From Candidatus Scalindua sp. (lineage in GTDB: Bacteria > Planctomycetota > Brocadiia > Brocadiales > Scalinduaceae): 32,000 nucleotides of DNA. The notes below the pieces were generated by a model. It was not told the origin of the DNA. It did no database searches and was given only the letters and a program-made list of their open reading frames with translations. A program made the translations under genes and the position numbers. How positions within the stretch are numbered: position 1 is the first letter of the stretch; every line of letters begins with the position of its first letter. Where the stretch lies: positions 1,380,001-1,412,000 of the forward strand of contig JALDRA010000001.1 in NCBI GenBank assembly GCA_031316235.1, given 5' to 3'. This document shows, piece by piece, positions 1 through 26,497 of the stretch.

Positions 1-1373
1 CTTCCAACATAGTAAAGAAAACCCTCTTCGTCTGATTTTACCAGATCACCGGAGTAGACAACCTTCTCCGTAAGCAAGGTCTCTTTGGAGGCAAGAGGAT
101 TCTGCCTGAACACCTCATCTGTCTTTACCGGATCATCCCAATATCCCAGGGATATCAATGCCCCACGGTGTACAAGTTCTCCAATTTCTCCCGGCCTGCA
201 CGGCTTATCTTCTTTATCCAGAATATAAATCTCAACCCCGGGGATTGCCTTTCCGATAGAGTCCGGTCTAGACCTTACTAACGATGGGTCCAGGTACGTT
301 GACCTGTGTGCCTCAGTTAAGCCATACATCAAATACAATTGAGTTTCAGGGAAGAGATCCAAAAGTCTGAATATAGTCTGCCTGGAAAGTTTCCCGCCGG
401 AATTGGTTATGTATCTCAGGTGTGCAAAATTATCATCCTCCCTCTTGTCCTTCATTTCTGCTATTCGATTCCAGATAACGGGTACTCCAGCAACACCCGT
501 TATCTTCTGTGCTCCTATGACCTTCAACAGGTCTTCGGGAAAAAGAAAATCATGAAGCACAATCGTCCCGCCTACTTTAATCGTTGTGAGCAACTGGTCT
601 AAACCATAATCGAAACTGAAGGGCAGGATACTGAGAACAATGTCATCACTATTCATATTCAGATAATTCGAAATTATTTCTGCACCATCCATCAGGTTTT
701 GGTGGGTAGTCATTATCCCTTTTGGAGAACCGGTACAACCAGAGGTATACATGATTGTTGCAAGATCTGAAGGTATACTAAAACCGATTTGGTTTTCGGT
801 TTTACCGGAAACCAAATCTTGGTTAATGGTATACTCGCTCAAATTTATCTCGGATTTTATCCGAAATCCAGTATGAGAGGAGTATATACAGACGGTTTCA
901 ATCAAGCAGTTCTTACTCTCTTCAGGGAGCCCACAAACGGACAGTACCTTTTCTGATCGAATCTCCGGAACAGGTTCAGCGTTTTCTTCAAAAAGGAATA
1001 TTCTTGAGATGGAGGTAAATCTACGTCCCACATAATCAACAGTTCTCAGTTTAAGGCTGTTACTGATGAGTAGTTTTATCCCGCAATCATTTGAAATATG
1101 TTCCAACTGGCTCTCTTTTAAAACGGGATTTAATAAAACGAATATCCCGCCAGCTTTAACAATTGCGAAAATAGATATTGCCTCTTCGATGGATTTTGGA
1201 AGATAGAGACCGATCCGATCTCCCTGTTTTGCGCCATTTTCCCGCAGCAATACTGCAAGCTTGTCGGATAATTCATCAAGTTCTCTGTATGTTATGGATT
1301 TAGAGCCAGAAACAATGGCCTTTTTCTCTGAAAACCCTGCACAGGAGTCTCTAAGAATTGCCTGTGTTGTCAT
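1..1373 (-). CDS. AMP-dependent synthetase/ligase (acyl-CoA or acyl-carrier-protein ligase family); the 3' end runs off the window
   Basis: Absent from the ORF track because the window edge truncates it. My reverse-strand translation from the ATG at 1373-1371 stays open to base 1. It begins MTTQAILRDSCAGFSEKKAIVSGSKSITYRELDELSDKLAVLLRENGAKQGDRIGLYLP. It contains the adenylation core motifs IMYTSGCTGSPKG and YSGDLVKSDEEGFLYYVGR. The start overlaps the ACP stop by 23 nt. Confidence 0.85.
   Translation of the reverse strand, partial: MTTQAILRDSCAGFSEKKAIVSGSKSITYRELDELSDKLAVLLRENGAKQGDRIGLYLPKSIEEAISIFAIVKAGGIFVLLNPVLKESQLEHISNDCGIKLLISNSLKLRTVDYVGRRFTSISRIFLFEENAEPVPEIRSEKVLSVCGLPEESKNCLIETVCIYSSHTGFRIKSEINLSEYTINQDLVSGKTENQIGFSIPSDLATIMYTSGCTGSPKGIMTTHQNLMDGAEIISNYLNMNSDDIVLSILPFSFDYGLDQLLTTIKVGGTIVLHDFLFPEDLLKVIGAQKITGVAGVPVIWNRIAEMKDKREDDNFAHLRYITNSGGKLSRQTIFRLLDLFPETQLYLMYGLTEAHRSTYLDPSLVRSRPDSIGKAIPGVEIYILDKEDKPCRPGEIGELVHRGALISLGYWDDPVKTDEVFRQNPLASKETLLTEKVVYSGDLVKSDEEGFLYYVG
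773..889. repeat. Family-1 117-bp TIR repeat, copy A, lying inside the AMP-ligase CDS
   Basis: Bases 808-889 match 25925-26032 almost base for base, apart from a 28-nt internal indel. Examples are gaaaccaaatcttggttaatggtat and actcgctcaaatttatctcggattttatccgaaatccagtatgagaggagtata. The ends are gtatac(t) and (a)gtatatac. The copy contains a 15-bp hairpin at 786-800/804-818. Its length of 117 nt equals 39 codons. Confidence 0.8.
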
Positions 1374-1626
1374 ATTCGATTGATACATTTTTTTTTGCCA
1401 GGAGTTTGCCGATTGCATCGATCGTTTCAAAATTTCTGTGTGTCATATCATCAGTTGTGAATTCCACCCCATACACTCTCTGCAGATGAGCAACAAGTTC
1501 AAGGATATTCATCGAATCCAACAATCCACTTTCCAATAAGGATTCACGTATAGTGATACCGGTTTCCTGAGGTGTGACATCAAGAAAAGATAAAATTTCT
1601 GATTTTAGTTTTGCAATCGATGTCAT
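1351..1626 (-). CDS. Acyl carrier protein / phosphopantetheine-binding carrier protein
   Basis: The 91-aa acidic four-helix-type sequence has the attachment motif GLLDSMNILELV (Ser of the DSM motif). It is translationally coupled to the downstream AMP ligase through an overlap. Confidence 0.8.
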   Translation of the reverse strand: MTSIAKLKSEILSFLDVTPQETGITIRESLLESGLLDSMNILELVAHLQRVYGVEFTTDDMTHRNFETIDAIGKLLAKKNVSIEYDNTGNS

Positions 1627-1761: not shown

Positions 1762-1796
1762 GTATACTCATCTTATAGTGGGTTTCGTATAAATAC
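1762..1796. repeat. Family-1 repeat, terminal fragment (solo end)
   Basis: gtatactcatcttatagtgggtttcgtataaatac aligns with the end of copy B (acatactcatcttgcaatggttttcggataaaat) and with the reverse complement of copy C. It lies in the gap between the EBP gene and the ACP gene. Confidence 0.55.
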
Positions 1797-1812
1797 CCTC
1801 AAGGAAACATAT

Positions 1813-11200: not shown

Positions 11201-12902
11201 AACTCATCAGCGACATCACAAGCTCTTCACGCAAAGGATCGATAGGCGGGTTCGTTACCTGTGCAAACAATTGCTTGAAATAATGAAACAAAAGCTGGGG
11301 CTTATTGGACAGCACCGCAAGAGCATTATCATTTCCCATGGCCCCAATTGGCTCCTGCCCCTGACTGGACATAGGAACAATCAAGGAATTAACATCTTCT
11401 TCAGTATAGCCAAATGCATGCTGCTGGATCCGAAGCTCTTCCAGGTTAATTTTTGGCACCCTGGACGGATTAAAGAGTCCGCGGAGTTCAATCAGGTTTT
11501 CTTTCAGCCAACGCCGATACGGTGATTGTCTTGATATTTTTGCCTTGATTTCATTGTCCGGTACCACCCGGTTCTGCTGCAAATCTACCAGAAACATTTT
11601 GCCGGGTTGTAACCTCCCGCGTTGACGGACCTTATCTCCCGGGATATCAAGGACACCGGTTTCAGAAGCCATGACTATCATGCCGCCTTTGGTTACCGTG
11701 TAACGCGCAGGCCTTAATCCATTCCTGTCGAGCATGGCCCCTATATATCGCCCATCAGTAATAACAATAGCGGCGGGGCCATCCCATGGCTCCATAAAAG
11801 AGGCATGATACTCATAAAAGCCGCGTTTATCTTCACTCATATAGTATTTTTTTCCGTAGGCTTCAGGAACCATCATCATAGCTGCATGAGAAAGAGATCT
11901 GCCTGCATGGATGAGTAATTCAAACACGTTATCAAAAATTGCCGAATCGCTGCCAAATTCATCATGAATAATTGGCTTAATTTTATCTATGTCAGCACCA
12001 AATGATTCCGACCGTAAATCTTTCTCTCGGGATTTCATCTGATTAATATTCCCGCGCAGGGTATTGATTTCTCCATTATGTGCAAGGCAGCGGAAAGGCT
12101 GTGCCAGATTCCAGGCTGGTAAAGTATTTGTGCTGTAACGCTGATGAATAATGCCAAACGCCGACATAAAACGAGAATCACCAAGATCAGAAAAAAAGAG
12201 AGGCAATTGGGTGCCCGTCAGCAATCCTTTGTAAACAACGGTCTTACAACTCAAGCTGCAAACATAAAACTGGCTGAAATCTCCCGTCGTCCAGGAGGAA
12301 ATCTCCTTTTCTAGGGAACGCCTCATGATATAAAGTCTCCTTTCAAGCTCTTCACCTTCATGTGTGCCACCCGATACGAAAATCTGATATATTGTGGGTT
12401 GTGTTACGCGGCTGAGTTCACCCAAGCAATCACTCTTGACAGGAACACTTCTCCACCCAAGCAGTGTGCAATTTTCAGACTCAACCATTTCCTGAACTGT
12501 TTTTCTGCATTTTTCCCTCAATGATTCTTCCGGCGGAAGAAAAAACATTCCCACCCCGTACTTTCCGGGCTGAGGCAATACAATACCCTGACCCTCACAC
12601 ACTCTGCGGAAGAATTCATCAGGAATCTGGACCATAAGTCCACCGCCGTCTCCTGTCCTTTTATCACTTCCGACAGCACCTCGGTGTTCCAGATTTATTG
12701 AAACCCGGATCGCATTCTTTATCACATCATGCGTCGGAGTGCCGTCAATCTGTGCCACAAAACCAACACCGCAGGCACCGTGCTCAAACTTTGGATCGTA
12801 CATCCCATTCCGTTTAGGCTGACCCGCCAGATTAACGTTAAAGAAATTATTACTCTCAGGCATACCAGTTTTTTTCTTTTCCATTATCATTTCCATCCTC
12901 AA
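8277..12902 (-). CDS. gltB: Glutamate synthase large subunit (Ntn amidotransferase, FMN/Fe-S and GXGXG domains)
   Basis: The N-terminal nucleophile context is HGACGVGFVAQ. The FMN domain and the C-terminal beta-helix (GNNFGAGMSGG) are present. The track start is a TTG at 12902. ATGs at 12896 and 12890 follow a GAGGA site and are more likely starts. Confidence 0.95.
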   Translation of the reverse strand: MRMEMIMEKKKTGMPESNNFFNVNLAGQPKRNGMYDPKFEHGACGVGFVAQIDGTPTHDVIKNAIRVSINLEHRGAVGSDKRTGDGGGLMVQIPDEFFRRVCEGQGIVLPQPGKYGVGMFFLPPEESLREKCRKTVQEMVESENCTLLGWRSVPVKSDCLGELSRVTQPTIYQIFVSGGTHEGEELERRLYIMRRSLEKEISSWTTGDFSQFYVCSLSCKTVVYKGLLTGTQLPLFFSDLGDSRFMSAFGIIHQRYSTNTLPAWNLAQPFRCLAHNGEINTLRGNINQMKSREKDLRSESFGADIDKIKPIIHDEFGSDSAIFDNVFELLIHAGRSLSHAAMMMVPEAYGKKYYMSEDKRGFYEYHASFMEPWDGPAAIVITDGRYIGAMLDRNGLRPARYTVTKGGMIVMASETGVLDIPGDKVRQRGRLQPGKMFLVDLQQNRVVPDNEIKAKISRQSPYRRWLKENLIELRGLFNPSRVPKINLEELRIQQHAFGYTEEDVNSLIVPMSSQGQEPIGAMGNDNALAVLSNKPQLLFHYFKQLFAQVTNPPIDPLREELVMSLMSFLGKKGGLLEETPEQCRQLKLSHPILSPTDMWRIRNANHPHMLVRKVDILFSAEGGGSALYSAMESLFEKAERHIEDGANILILTDRSMDKNRCPIPALLAVSGLHHHLIKKGLRNACGLIIETGEAREVMHFSLLIAFGISAICPYVAFSSVRELSEQSLIGNGMSAEDAMDSYISAIKKGLLKTFSRMGISTIRSFFGSQIFEAIGIDRSVIDQYFCNTSSRVGGIGLEEIAQEVYARHRKAYPPNGHPDELLDIGGRFSVKYGGEKHLWVPETIYKLQQATRNDDYKVFKEFTRLIDNQTKELATLRGLFKFKECVKVPIEEVEPIEDIMKRFVTAAMSFGSVSRETHEAIAIAMNRIGGRSNSGEGGEDPERFKKLPNGDWKISKIKQVASGRFGVTSEYLLNAEELQIKIAQGAKPGEGGHLPGHKVSPEIAKVRHTTPGVSLISPPPHHDIYSIEDLKQIIYDLHCSNPKAKVSVKLVSAAGVGTVAAGVAKAKADLVLISGYDGGTGAAPWSSILHAGVPWELGLSETQQTLVANGLRDRIVVQTDGQLKTGRDCVIAALLGAEEYGFGTSVLVTLGCVLMRKCHMNTCPVGVATQNPVLREKFEGKVEYVERYFRFIAREMREYMAELGMKTVDEMVGRVDKLEVQDAANHWKAKHLDFSALLTHSDPGGKNNLRCVKAQDHELSEALDNELIRLSEGTLTKKEPTIINLPIRNVNRTVGTMLCSEITRKFGSLGLPEDTIQLNFTGSAGQSLGAFMVPGVTIRVEGDANDYVGKGMSGGKIIINPPRGTTFKPHENIIAGNVILYGATKGELYLHGMVGERFAVRNSGATAVVEGVGDHGCEYMTGGIVVVIGQTGNNFGAGMSGGIAYVYDEHEWFGMKCNLDMVDLESVWTEEDKKILYALLEKHVKYTQSVRGKEILDHWESSLPLFVKVIPMEYRKSLERIRQEEHLDDETVLATEEVYNG

Positions 12903-12926
12903 TGTCCATTTGACCGTAACAAATCA

Positions 12927-12955
12927 ATATCAGGTGGAACATACTCATCTTGCAA
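12927..12955 (-). promoter_or_regulatory. Candidate gltBD promoter whose -35 lies in the terminus of repeat copy B
   Basis: On the minus strand the site reads TTGCAA (12955-12950), a 17-nt spacer, then TGATAT (12932-12927). It lies about 25-35 nt upstream of the gltB start candidates. Confidence 0.3.
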
Positions 12956-13055
12956 TGGTTTTCGGATAAAATCCGAGATAAAATTGAGCGAGTACAAGTC
13001 CTCGGCAAGCTTTTGTCCGGGGATACCCAAAAGAGAGATTATAAGATGAGTATAC
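12939..13055. repeat. Family-1 117-bp TIR repeat, copy B (intergenic, between gltB and the START-domain gene)
   Basis: The perfect 11-bp terminal inverted repeats are atactcatctt (12941-12951) and aagatgagtat (13043-13053). The core ggttttcggataaaatccgagataaaattgagcgagtacaagtcctcggc is the reverse complement of copy C. Confidence 0.8.
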
Positions 13056-19568: not shown

Positions 19569-20432
19569 ATGACAAAGATGAAACAACTCTATTCGATCAT
19601 GATAAGCGCAATGGGAGTAGAGAATTATGAAATTCCAATGACCGCTGTCAAATTTTTTAAAAAAGAGGATGAGATCCCGGAACCGGTACAAATGAATAAG
19701 CCATCTATCTCATTAACAAGTTGCCAAGCCACAAAACAGGCATCTCTGGGCGATGCAGCTCTTTTAACTTACGATAACATTGGCTGTGTAGCAGCCGCCA
19801 TAACCTTTGGCCTGGTGGATCAGAATCGGACCGAACCGCTTGGTGAATCAAGGGTATATACAGATATTATGCGCGATCAATCCGGATTAGGCGGGGACTT
19901 TAAGCCTCCCTCTCCAAAGGATTTTACCACTGGTACTGTTTATGCCTGTAAAGCCGCAGACCGTATGGATTTTGCTCTTTTCGGCAAGGATGATGTTGGC
20001 CGTTTTAAAGATGAGGAAACTGCCAAAAAAGCTATTGCAGACATGATGGCCATACAACCACCAACTATGAAGGGTGTCTTTTTTTATTCGATAGATTTTG
20101 ATGACCTGGATTTAATACCCGATGTGGTAGTCTTAAACGTTCGATCCGCTGAATTGTCCAGACTCATCCAGGCATATCAATTCAATACGGGAAAACGGGT
20201 AACAGCGAGTATGGGTGGTTTGAGGGTCGTTAACTCTGACCTCATAGTCCGTCCTTATCTGACCCAGGAAATCAATATTGCTCCATATTGTCTTGGAGCC
20301 AGACTTATAGCAGAGTTTGAAGCTGATCGATTGGGTATGGGTATGCCCTTTCACCTCTTTGAGGAGACCGTAAAGGGAATGGAAGACTCCAAGACCGGCT
20401 TCCCCTTCCACCTCTATCCGGGAGTTAGTTGA
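19569..20432 (+). CDS. DUF169 (COG2043) family protein of unknown function
   Basis: The pattern is typical of DUF169: AVKFFKKEDEIPE, SCQATKQA, NIGCVAAAITFGL, PDVVVLNVRSAELSRLIQA, and a C-terminal GMPFHLFEETVKGME. A GGAG site lies 8 nt upstream of the ATG. Confidence 0.65.
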   Translation: MTKMKQLYSIMISAMGVENYEIPMTAVKFFKKEDEIPEPVQMNKPSISLTSCQATKQASLGDAALLTYDNIGCVAAAITFGLVDQNRTEPLGESRVYTDIMRDQSGLGGDFKPPSPKDFTTGTVYACKAADRMDFALFGKDDVGRFKDEETAKKAIADMMAIQPPTMKGVFFYSIDFDDLDLIPDVVVLNVRSAELSRLIQAYQFNTGKRVTASMGGLRVVNSDLIVRPYLTQEINIAPYCLGARLIAEFEADRLGMGMPFHLFEETVKGMEDSKTGFPFHLYPGVS

Positions 20433-20492
20433 AGGAGTGCTGGTTTTTGGGATAAATTCGAGGAAAACGGAGTGAGTCTACCATTAACCAGG

Positions 20493-20532
20493 CTTTGATT
20501 TTTAGAAAACTCTAAAACCAAAGTGGTTTTTT
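20493..20532 (+). terminator. Candidate rho-independent terminator after the DUF169 gene
   Basis: An imperfect AU-rich stem pairs ctttgatttttag with ctaaaaccaaag (one mismatch, one bulge). It is followed by tggtttttt. Confidence 0.4.
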
Positions 20533-20620
20533 AATACAATACGCTTTTGTGATTTGTCATGGTTCCCGATAAACACTTTTTTTCCGCCTATTGTTGAAAT
20601 TTTTTATATGGACATTTTTC

Positions 20621-22280: not shown

Positions 22281-22408
22281 CATTTATATATCATTTCAGA
22301 AGTTGCCAAGCCAAGAAATTCCTTCCAATCCTCTACCATTTCATTAAAAGCTGATAGCGATGGCGGAGAAAGTAGGTATCCTCTTGACTTTTCCCATAAT
22401 TGATGAGA
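22281..22408. repeat. Family-2 paralogous segment, copy 1 (degraded gene remnant or shared upstream element)
   Basis: ttcagaagttgccaagccaagaaattccttccaatcctctaccatttcattaa aligns with 26113-26165. The flanking tttcccataa block is also shared. Confidence 0.65.
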
Positions 22409-25770: not shown

Positions 25771-25915
25771 TGTTTAACCATAAAAAAGTTTCTACTTCTG
25801 TTAATTTTTCATACAATCCATAATACGCAGAGTCAATAATCAATCGGGCGAGACCATACCTGTTATCTGTTTTTCTCAGATTTTCGTCCGGTTTTTCCAG
25901 GCTTAAGACGTGCCC

Positions 25916-26032
25916 GTATATATTGAAACCAAATCTCGGTTAATGGTATCCCCGGACAAAAAACGCCGAGGACTTGTACTCGCCCAATTTTATCTCGAAT
26001 TTTATCCGAAATCCAGTATGAGATGAGTATAC
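25916..26032. repeat. Family-1 117-bp TIR repeat, copy C (intergenic)
   Basis: The copy runs from gtatatattgaaaccaaatctcggttaatggtatccccggacaaaaaacgccgaggacttgtactcgcccaattttatctcgaattttatccgaaatccagtatgagatgagtatac. It shares its right 60 nt with copies A and B, its middle with B and its left module with A. Confidence 0.8.
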
Positions 26033-26097
26033 TTTTCATGACGGGTAAAAAACTATCCCTCCCGGGAGATCGTCCCAATACGTTTCTGCTGTTGTGA

Positions 26098-26210
26098 CAT
26101 TTTTATATTTTTTTCAGAAGTTGTCAAGCTAAGAAATTCATTCCAATTGTCTATCATTTCATTAAGCGGTGACTTTTTCAGTAAGATGTTCTCTTTCCCA
26201 TAAACGTGAG
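26098..26210. repeat. Family-2 paralogous segment, copy 2
   Basis: ttcagaagttgtcaagctaagaaattcattccaattgtctatcatttcattaa aligns with copy 1 at roughly 80-85% identity by eye over the core. The minus-strand reading gives ...AAAHVYGKENILLKKSPLNEMIDNWNEFLSLTTSEK, against copy 1 ...FNEMVEDWKEFLGLATSE. Confidence 0.65.
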
Positions 26211-26316
26211 CGGCAGCGCTGCTCAACTTCCACGACTCAGCTTTATCATTAAGTCAGAGCTCTTACGGGATTAATTCCAGGCATCTTAGTGCTTACGAAA
26301 CCTCACGGCTTCGCCC

Positions 26317-26345
26317 TTGCCTTCGGCTGATGGTTGGCGTATAAT
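26317..26345 (+). promoter_or_regulatory. Candidate sigma-70 promoter for sugE, which would give a leader of about 145 nt
   Basis: The site reads TTGCCT (26317-26322), a 17-nt spacer, then TATAAT (26340-26345). Confidence 0.4.
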
Positions 26346-26497
26346 GCCGCCATATCGAGATTCTCCCATAAGGAACTTTCACCCTATTAGTTCACATACA
26401 TGCTGGGCGTACACAATGCTAAATCAGCCGACACAAAAAGCCGAACGGCTGATTAAAAACGTAATGAGTCAACAGAATCAAGAATTGGAGTAGAAGT

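Follow-up and report, generated by a model that had tools for sequence, protein, structure and literature searches.

The TA dinucleotide is the target of IS630-family insertion sequences (IS) and of the RUP repeat of Streptococcus pneumoniae, and it is also duplicated by the Correia elements of Neisseria. RUP has been linked to IS630-Spn1 on the basis of the similarity of their ends, and the link between the BOX repeat and ISSpn2 has been described as weaker (PMC3049150). BOX has a composite layout, with forms in which the middle unit is missing and with elements nested in one another (PMC3049150). The Correia elements (CREE or NEMIS) are abundant MITEs of ~100-155 bp, which lie mostly in intergenic regions; an internal segment distinguishes their long forms from their short ones (PMC10969869). 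In-frame fusions of MITEs with genes have been reviewed as not unusual, and for the RPEs of Rickettsia they are the rule (PMC10969869).

We analysed a window of 32,000 nt (C1:1380001-1412000) from a Candidatus Scalindua genome (G000; 4.26 Mb in two contigs, C1 and C2, 41.7% G+C). Scalindua-group anammox bacteria account for much of the nitrogen lost from the sea, and most of what is known of them comes from metagenome assemblies. A sequence-only reading of the window had claimed three full copies and one terminal fragment of a short repeat. All of them are present, at slightly corrected coordinates (774-886, 12940-13054, 25919-26031 and 1764-1798). The list of copies was not complete, as a decayed copy at ~20440-20539 had been overlooked; blastn, nhmmer and repeat search together place three full copies, one decayed near-full copy and one fragment in the window. 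Full-text literature searches found no published description of this Scalindua repeat family, which is apparently an undescribed and real member of a well-known kind, the IS630-dependent MITEs.

The element resembles RUP (107 bp) in that it is a non-coding unit of ~110 nt, present in high copy number, with ends that resemble those of an IS630-family IS of the same lineage. It differs from RUP, a simple and non-modular unit, in that it strings hairpin modules together around a middle array that varies; its copy number is several times higher, and its cognate IS is degraded in G000. With BOX of S. pneumoniae and S. suis, arranged as boxA-(boxB)n-boxC, it shares two terminal modules, variable tandem internal units that fold on themselves, forms without the middle unit and elements inserted into one another. 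In contrast to BOX, the Scalindua element has ends strongly similar to those of an IS and a demonstrated duplication of TA. The host phylum is also different, and the middle unit, module M, is 27 nt long compared with the 45 nt of boxB. The likeness to BOX is architectural only, and no homology is claimed. Like the Correia elements, the Scalindua repeat is abundant, falls in the range of ~100-155 bp, exists in long and short forms through an internal segment and is mostly placed between genes. However, the 26-bp inverted repeats, promoters, IHF sites and RNase III processing of the Correia elements are not evident in it, and the Correia elements are not known to have a transposase partner.

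Copy A (774..886, plus strand) is a short form made of modules L and R, 113 nt in length including TA at both ends (nhmmer E 1e-28, model positions 1-139). Copy C (25919..26031, plus strand, 113 nt; nhmmer E 1e-28, model positions 34-139) is composed of the L terminus, the L tail, M and R; it is a long form without the first L hairpin, which has been deleted between the direct repeats AAAACC/AAACC. Copy B (12940..13054, minus strand, 115 nt; nhmmer E 3e-21, model positions 53-138) is inverted relative to copies A and C and lies in a 166-nt spacer between a START-domain gene and gltB. It is a chimeric long form, in which a 17-nt R-type terminus is followed by an L-tail-like stretch, module M and module R, and its left 38 nt are without a second match anywhere in the genome. 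The perfect 11-bp termini reported for this copy were confirmed, ATACTCATCTT at 12941-12951 and AAGATGAGTAT at 13043-13053, and they are perfect because the left end of copy B is an R-type terminus. The M region of copy B (12981..13024, minus strand) contains a variant of the 27-nt unit, which reads CCCCGGACAAAAGCTTGCCGAGGACTTG at ~12996-13023.

The three modules that the sequence-only reading had recognised from these few copies recur across the genome. The right module with TCGGATTTTATCCGA, shared by all three copies, is genome-wide module R; the middle module of copies B and C, ggtatccccggacaaaa..gccgaggac, is module M; and the left module of copies A and C, gaaaccaaatctyggttaatggtat, is the tail of module L. 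The description of the structure as modular is therefore correct, given the hairpin deletion in copy C, the chimera in copy B and the L/M/R modules of the whole genome. The fragment at 1764..1798 (minus strand, 35 nt) is a decayed terminal arm of module R, TATACTCATCTTATAGTGGGTTTCGTATAAATACC, and sits 3' of the sigma-54 activator gene. The overlooked copy at ~20440..20539 (minus strand; nhmmer E 4e-9, model positions 7-124) is a decayed short form placed between a DUF169 gene and a cysteine-desulfurase-like gene. It has an L of the TTTTAGA...TCTAAAA subfamily and most of R, its R terminus is gone, and it is an old copy.

The genes of the window are otherwise housekeeping: they include an adenylation enzyme, the sigma-54 activator, LpxI/LpxD, gltB/gltD, a molybdopterin oxidoreductase, a sensor kinase, an ABC exporter, a pyrophosphatase and a class II tRNA synthetase. 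No transposase was found among them, in agreement with what had been stated for the window. Two entries of the ORF track (12729-13049 and 25863-26078) overlap copies B and C, one of them being also antisense to gltB, and they are plausibly artefacts of the repeat, as had been supposed.

A blastn search of G000 with the three copies gave 1976 hits, which merge into 715 loci. With a profile built from full-length copies, nhmmer found 684 loci at E < 0.01, and this is the genome-wide copy number that the sequence-only reading had proposed to obtain. The 684 loci sum to 74.4 kb, which is 1.75% of the genome or one locus per 6.2 kb, and 26 of them are on the 106-kb second contig. Such recurrence goes far beyond what chance would give. 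A repeat confined to the window, or one always carried within a larger duplicated gene block, is not what was found. That the copies are by-products of larger duplicated gene blocks, or assembly artefacts, has practically no chance of being correct and is refuted: among 315 full-length copies the flanks show no relation to one another, even immediately outside the boundaries TATACT and AGTATA, and the family also occurs in independent assemblies of other species.

Two size classes dominate the census, a short form of 112 nt (229 loci) and a long form of 139-141 nt (214 loci). About 240 further loci are partial or deleted, among them 40 solo R units, ~50 solo L units and ~59 units without the first hairpin, and in another 12 units, 28-29 nt long, there is nothing but the two termini. 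The median divergence from consensus is 5.4% for the short forms and 9.4% for the long forms. At its low end the distribution has a young tail, in which 25 short copies are at <=2%, and five copies do not differ from the consensus at all. In each of the two forms, five of the six frames of the consensus contain stops. On the second contig, repeated segments with variant termini (TATACTCATCAGATAATGG...) occupy C2 ~82-104 kb, and three near-identical hairpin-deleted copies are found on the same contig at 94814, 95729 and 100078.

The element spans from TATACT to AGTATA, the TA at either extremity being a copy of the duplicated target. Module L is ~55 nt, the optional module M 27 nt and module R ~57 nt in length; in the short-form consensus, TATACTAAAACCGATTTGGTTTTCGGTTTTACCGGAAACCAAATCTTGGTGAAGGTATACTCGCTCAATTTTATCTCGGATTTTATCCGAAAACCATTATGAGATGAGTATA, an internal TATACT at position 56 splits L from R. 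The outer termini align in register, TATACTnAnnnC....TGGTTTTCGG. In the common form the inverted repeat is imperfect, with TATACT-A as its perfect part, and inverted termini of 13-17 nt are seen in copy B and in solo-R units. Modules L and R each combine a terminus with an internal arm that is roughly complementary to it, and each therefore folds as its own hairpin. The module hairpins fold independently, no single long stem joining the two ends of the element, and the RNA fold z-scores of both strands range from -5.4 to -7.4. Perfectly palindromic variants also exist. Module M (consensus CCCCGGACAAAAAGCGCCGAGGACTTT) is a GC-rich hairpin placed between the two TAs of the central TATA. It occurs 241 times in G000, in 239 cases inside catalogued elements and in two cases outside them, and its number per element is 0 in the 229 short forms, 1 (n=235) or 2 in tandem (n=3).

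The nature of the target site was analysed through nested insertions and an empty site, and the duplication that had been left for checking proved to be TA. There are two nested insertions, at C1:3205374-3205627 and C1:629175-629418. In the first, the interrupted host copy reads ...CGAATTT-TA-[element]-TA-TCCGAAATCC, and the uninterrupted copy reads ...ATTTTATCCGAAA; the layout of the second is the same. Several tandem pairs of elements have one TA in common. Two sister species, G001 and G002, have orthologous adenylation-enzyme genes without copy A, and their empty sites read CAG-TA-TCCC (G001) and CTG-TA-TTCC (G002). The filled site in G000 is CTG-TA-[TA TACTCC...TTTTAG TA-TA]-CC. It can be seen from the empty and filled sites that the target TA has therefore been duplicated. 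Copy B is missing from the orthologous spacer upstream of gltB in G002, a spacer too diverged to give the exact site, and no empty site was found for copy C, the flanks of which are unconserved in the sister species.

By its letters, the same TA-flanked arrangement would also be expected if the element inserted on the 3' side of a TA and did not duplicate it. A family of the REP/REPIN type, moved by a single-strand HUH transposase (Y1, RAYT or IS200/IS605-type), would behave in this way, if the enzyme recognised the module hairpins and inserted next to TA without a true duplication; the sequence outcome of such insertion is identical to that of a TA duplication. The stability of the module hairpins, with the z-scores given above, and the existence of solo modules and of perfectly palindromic variants would suit such an enzyme, and G000 has 11 matches to Y1_Tnp. 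However, none of the 11 is bracketed by modules, and the six that have a copy within 2.5 kb are about what chance gives at one locus per 6.2 kb. The flank preference beyond TA is weak and limited to an A, which precedes the element in 60% of copies. In addition, the termini match the end of an IS630-family IS over 26 nt and co-vary with it between genera, and insertion 3' of TA without duplication is unlikely because of that match. It therefore seems very improbable that a HUH enzyme moved these elements. The alternative of a REP-like structured repeat, which the sequence-only reading had left beside the MITE, found no support, no Y1 or RAYT gene being framed by the modules.

The insertion of copy A falls within a coding sequence. 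The AMP-binding (adenylation-domain) gene occupies positions 3..1430 of the window on the minus strand and matches Pfam PF00501 at 7.4e-82 in one stretch. Its frame is open through copy A, and the element codes for residues ~182-219. The stop-to-stop frame extends 185 codons upstream and 370 codons downstream of the copy, and it is ~593 codons long in G000 compared with 553 and 566 in the sister species. The length of copy A, 113 nt instead of 112 nt, is the only one that, added to the 2-nt duplication, keeps the frame. The net insertion is 111 nt, or 37 residues, and the product reads ...ETVCI-YSSHTGFRIKSEINLSEYTINQDLVSGKTENQIGFSI-PSDLATIMYTSG..., the insertion point being just upstream of the A3 motif, PSDLATIMYTSGCTGSPKG. 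In PDB alignments query residues ~128-204 are unaligned, a stretch that overlaps the insert, and the aligned block restarts at residue 205-210. We propose that copy A survived because the net 111 nt keep the frame and lie in a variable stretch before motif A3.

In this respect copy A is like the RPEs of Rickettsia, as it is translated in frame within an otherwise intact enzyme gene, to which it adds 37 residues. Unlike the RPEs, for which in-frame genic insertion is the rule (PMC10969869), such fusion is an exception in the Scalindua family: at most 6 of the 684 loci lie inside a frame that is open for at least 50 codons on both sides, and one is a clear case. Copy A thus provides a natural example of a 37-residue insertion that is apparently tolerated in an adenylation enzyme, the frame being open.

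A partner for the repeat was found by direct comparison of IS copies; a strict motif scan of IS630 loci (<=1 mismatch) had missed it. In the sister species G001 there are ~13 copies of a 1124-bp IS, which encodes a protein of 343 aa that scores 211.9 bits on the NCBIfam model NF033545 'IS630 family transposase' (cut-off 100). TA flanks both ends of this IS, and the end downstream of the gene is TATACTCATTACGAAATGGTTTTAGG. This right end agrees with the R terminus of the MITE at 21 of 26 positions and with the L terminus at 19 of 26. The sequence-only reading had advised a search for an autonomous IS whose ends are of the GTATACTCATCT type, and the IS630-family IS whose right end begins TATACTCATTACGAAATGGTTTTAGG answers to it, intact in the sister species and truncated in G000.

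The correspondence extends to the sister genus. In G021 the right end of the IS, TATACCCATTCCAAAATAGTTTTAGG, and a MITE terminus from that genome, TATACCCATCTCAAAATAGTTTTCGG, agree at 23 of 26 positions. Both kinds of ends in G021 have the genus-specific CAAAATAGTTTT, at which the Scalindua genus has ATAATGGTTTT or GAAATGGTTTT; the 23 matching positions include CAAAATAG, where the Scalindua genus has ATAATGG or GAAATGG. Because the 23/26 match includes genus-specific letters, the IS and MITE ends co-vary between genera, and this co-variation is the strongest argument for the pairing.

In G000 itself one copy of the 1124-bp type remains, at ~C1:76720-77700, and its protein is 82% identical over 304 aa. 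This copy has been cut at its 3' end by another IS, so that the last ~40 codons are gone; the PYSPNLNLIERLW region is present. Fragments of the partner IS and an orphan right end are found at ~29.6-33.7 kb. No intact gene for the cognate transposase was found in G000, and since the cognate IS is represented there by a truncated copy and remnants, present-day activity in this genome is uncertain. In G002, with ~400 candidate copies of the MITE, the partner IS is present as a C-terminal fragment only, with the same right end. The family is a clear case of a MITE that has outlived its IS630 partner.

Two other candidates for the partner were considered and rejected. The IS630-family IS of 1227 bp that is present in seven copies in G000 (C1:1631356-1632582 and six other places) has inverted repeats, CTAGTGTCACGTCAA, that are unlike the ends of the element. 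Its transposase is split between two frames (158 and 244 aa) that overlap, an arrangement that suggests a programmed frameshift. Orphan termini arranged in inverted pairs were also considered as the ends of a full-length IS. Three such pairs, at C1:510344-512573, C1:485272-487489 and C2:82261-84480, enclose unrelated, ordinary-looking ORFs of 620 aa (with a signal peptide-like start), 665 aa and 419 aa, in which no similarity to a transposase was seen. The spacings are nearly equal (2230, 2218 and 2220 bp), and these three are among five such pairs in the genome; the framed ORFs may be a coincidence or genes captured between element ends. A search with Pfam Transposase_1 (mariner-type) gave 0 matches, and the control genomes likewise gave 0.

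The hundreds of copies, the sharp ends TATACT...AGTATA, the TA duplication and the L/M/R architecture bear out the earlier view of the repeat as a non-autonomous, MITE-like element. Considered together with the ends of the IS, they point to an IS630-dependent composite MITE family that is mobilised in trans by an IS630-family transposase, a reading to which we give a probability of roughly 80%. We infer that transposition is carried out by this class of enzyme. The IS630 transposase would bind the IRR-like termini, excise the element and insert it at TA, and repair or replication would then raise the copy number. The short, long, hairpin-deleted, solo-L, solo-R and 29-nt micro forms, as well as chimeras of the copy B kind, might be the products of three processes: deletions between short direct repeats (AAAACC), slippage or unequal exchange within the M array, and recombination of one copy with another. 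Most of the insertions that fall within genes would be purged by selection.

The behaviour of the family in the genome was analysed on a crude gene map of non-overlapping ORFs of >=90 aa, in which gene positions are approximate. On this map, orientation relative to co-directional neighbouring genes is 191:190, which is no bias, and the density is 0.67-0.79 per kb across tandem, divergent and convergent spacers. Scans detected no promoter-like or terminator-like site inside copies B and C, and no Rfam match at the gathering score was obtained anywhere in the window. This pattern fits long-term selfish spread, with genic insertions removed by selection.

A different possibility is that the repeat is primarily a structured element with a function for the host, an RNA hairpin or a protein-binding site with the conserved M as its core, that serves transcript processing, attenuation or nucleoid organisation, and that its spread is secondary to this function. 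The lack of orientation bias, the equal use of all intergenic classes and the negative results with promoters, terminators and Rfam all speak against it. Moreover, M is absent from half of the full copies and stands outside the element in no more than 2 of its 241 occurrences in G000, and copies are present or absent at orthologous sites. The structural evidence on module M, in contrast, agrees with such a function, as does the behaviour of the stems in the copies of related genomes, and both are given below; on balance we regard a host role as the primary cause of the family as quite unlikely.

The family was present in 19 of the 40 related genomes searched, with the highest counts in the Scalindua genus. 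For the three genomes of this genus the first-look numbers are 687, 251 and 401, and they are mostly lower in the sister genus; all copy numbers for genomes other than G000 are candidate counts. An exact 22-mer scan of species-representative genomes matched four records, namely Candidatus Scalindua sp. SCAELEC01, Candidatus Scalinduaceae bacterium (CBDCUS01), Candidatus Scalindua sp. OFTM1 and one uncultured Planctomycetota MAG. The elements of the sister genus have the same termini and the same L and R hairpins, are 141 to ~270 nt long and carry 1-5 tandem M units together with extra GC-rich hairpins. At one locus (L136, G015:C83:82560-82780) a tandem M-M pair stands alone, without L or R. 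Short forms were also seen in two other families of the order (L145, G030:C3:20800-21010; L146, G025:C84:3990-4200). These two are 89-91% identical to the G000 consensus, compared with 75-83% for the sister-genus copies, a closeness that could be due to horizontal transfer or to contamination of the bins.

Module M is the best-conserved part of the element in G000, with a mean column identity of 92.7% compared with 84-90% for the other modules. The M of the sister genus is nearly identical to the G000 consensus, whereas L and R are at ~76-79%. In the same comparison the M stem is invariant and its loop varies, and the M hairpin is perfect on the minus strand only, through a G-U pair. Covariation was seen in the other modules: at one stem pair of L there are 62 double changes (T-A to C-G) against 69 single intermediates, and the arms of R co-vary between sister-genus copies. 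The conservation of M and the covariation of the stems exceed what selfish spread requires; the same features may equally result from inheritance within subfamilies or from homogenisation of the arms. We regard it as unlikely, though deserving of mention, that M has a function of its own, as a conserved hairpin, a site bound by a protein or a signal at the RNA level, and that the transposon has scattered it across the Scalinduaceae. If this were the case, the family would spread a regulatory or structural module throughout the lineage, as has been proposed for boxB in pneumococcus. M is in any event a natural example of a module conserved beyond the needs of selfish spread.

At ~700 copies per genome the repeat breaks short-read assemblies and gives rise to false ORFs, plausibly including the two in the window, and it should be masked or annotated. 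The family also offers hundreds of presence/absence markers for strain typing.

Two further features were noted in the window. A non-coding segment of ~120 nt at 26295-26417, which contains TTGGCGTATAATGCCGCC, is single-copy in G000 and has no Rfam match. It is kept at 86-96% at four places in G002 and two in G001, and a 54-nt piece of it occurs again at C1:3309471-3309524, adjoining a MITE copy. The second is a family of direct repeats at 19713-19736, 22294-22354 and 26112-26172, near gene ends, that read TTTCAGAAGTTGCCAAGCCAAGAAATTC...; they are 61 nt long and 85% identical, with the third copy shorter, and are unrelated to the MITE.
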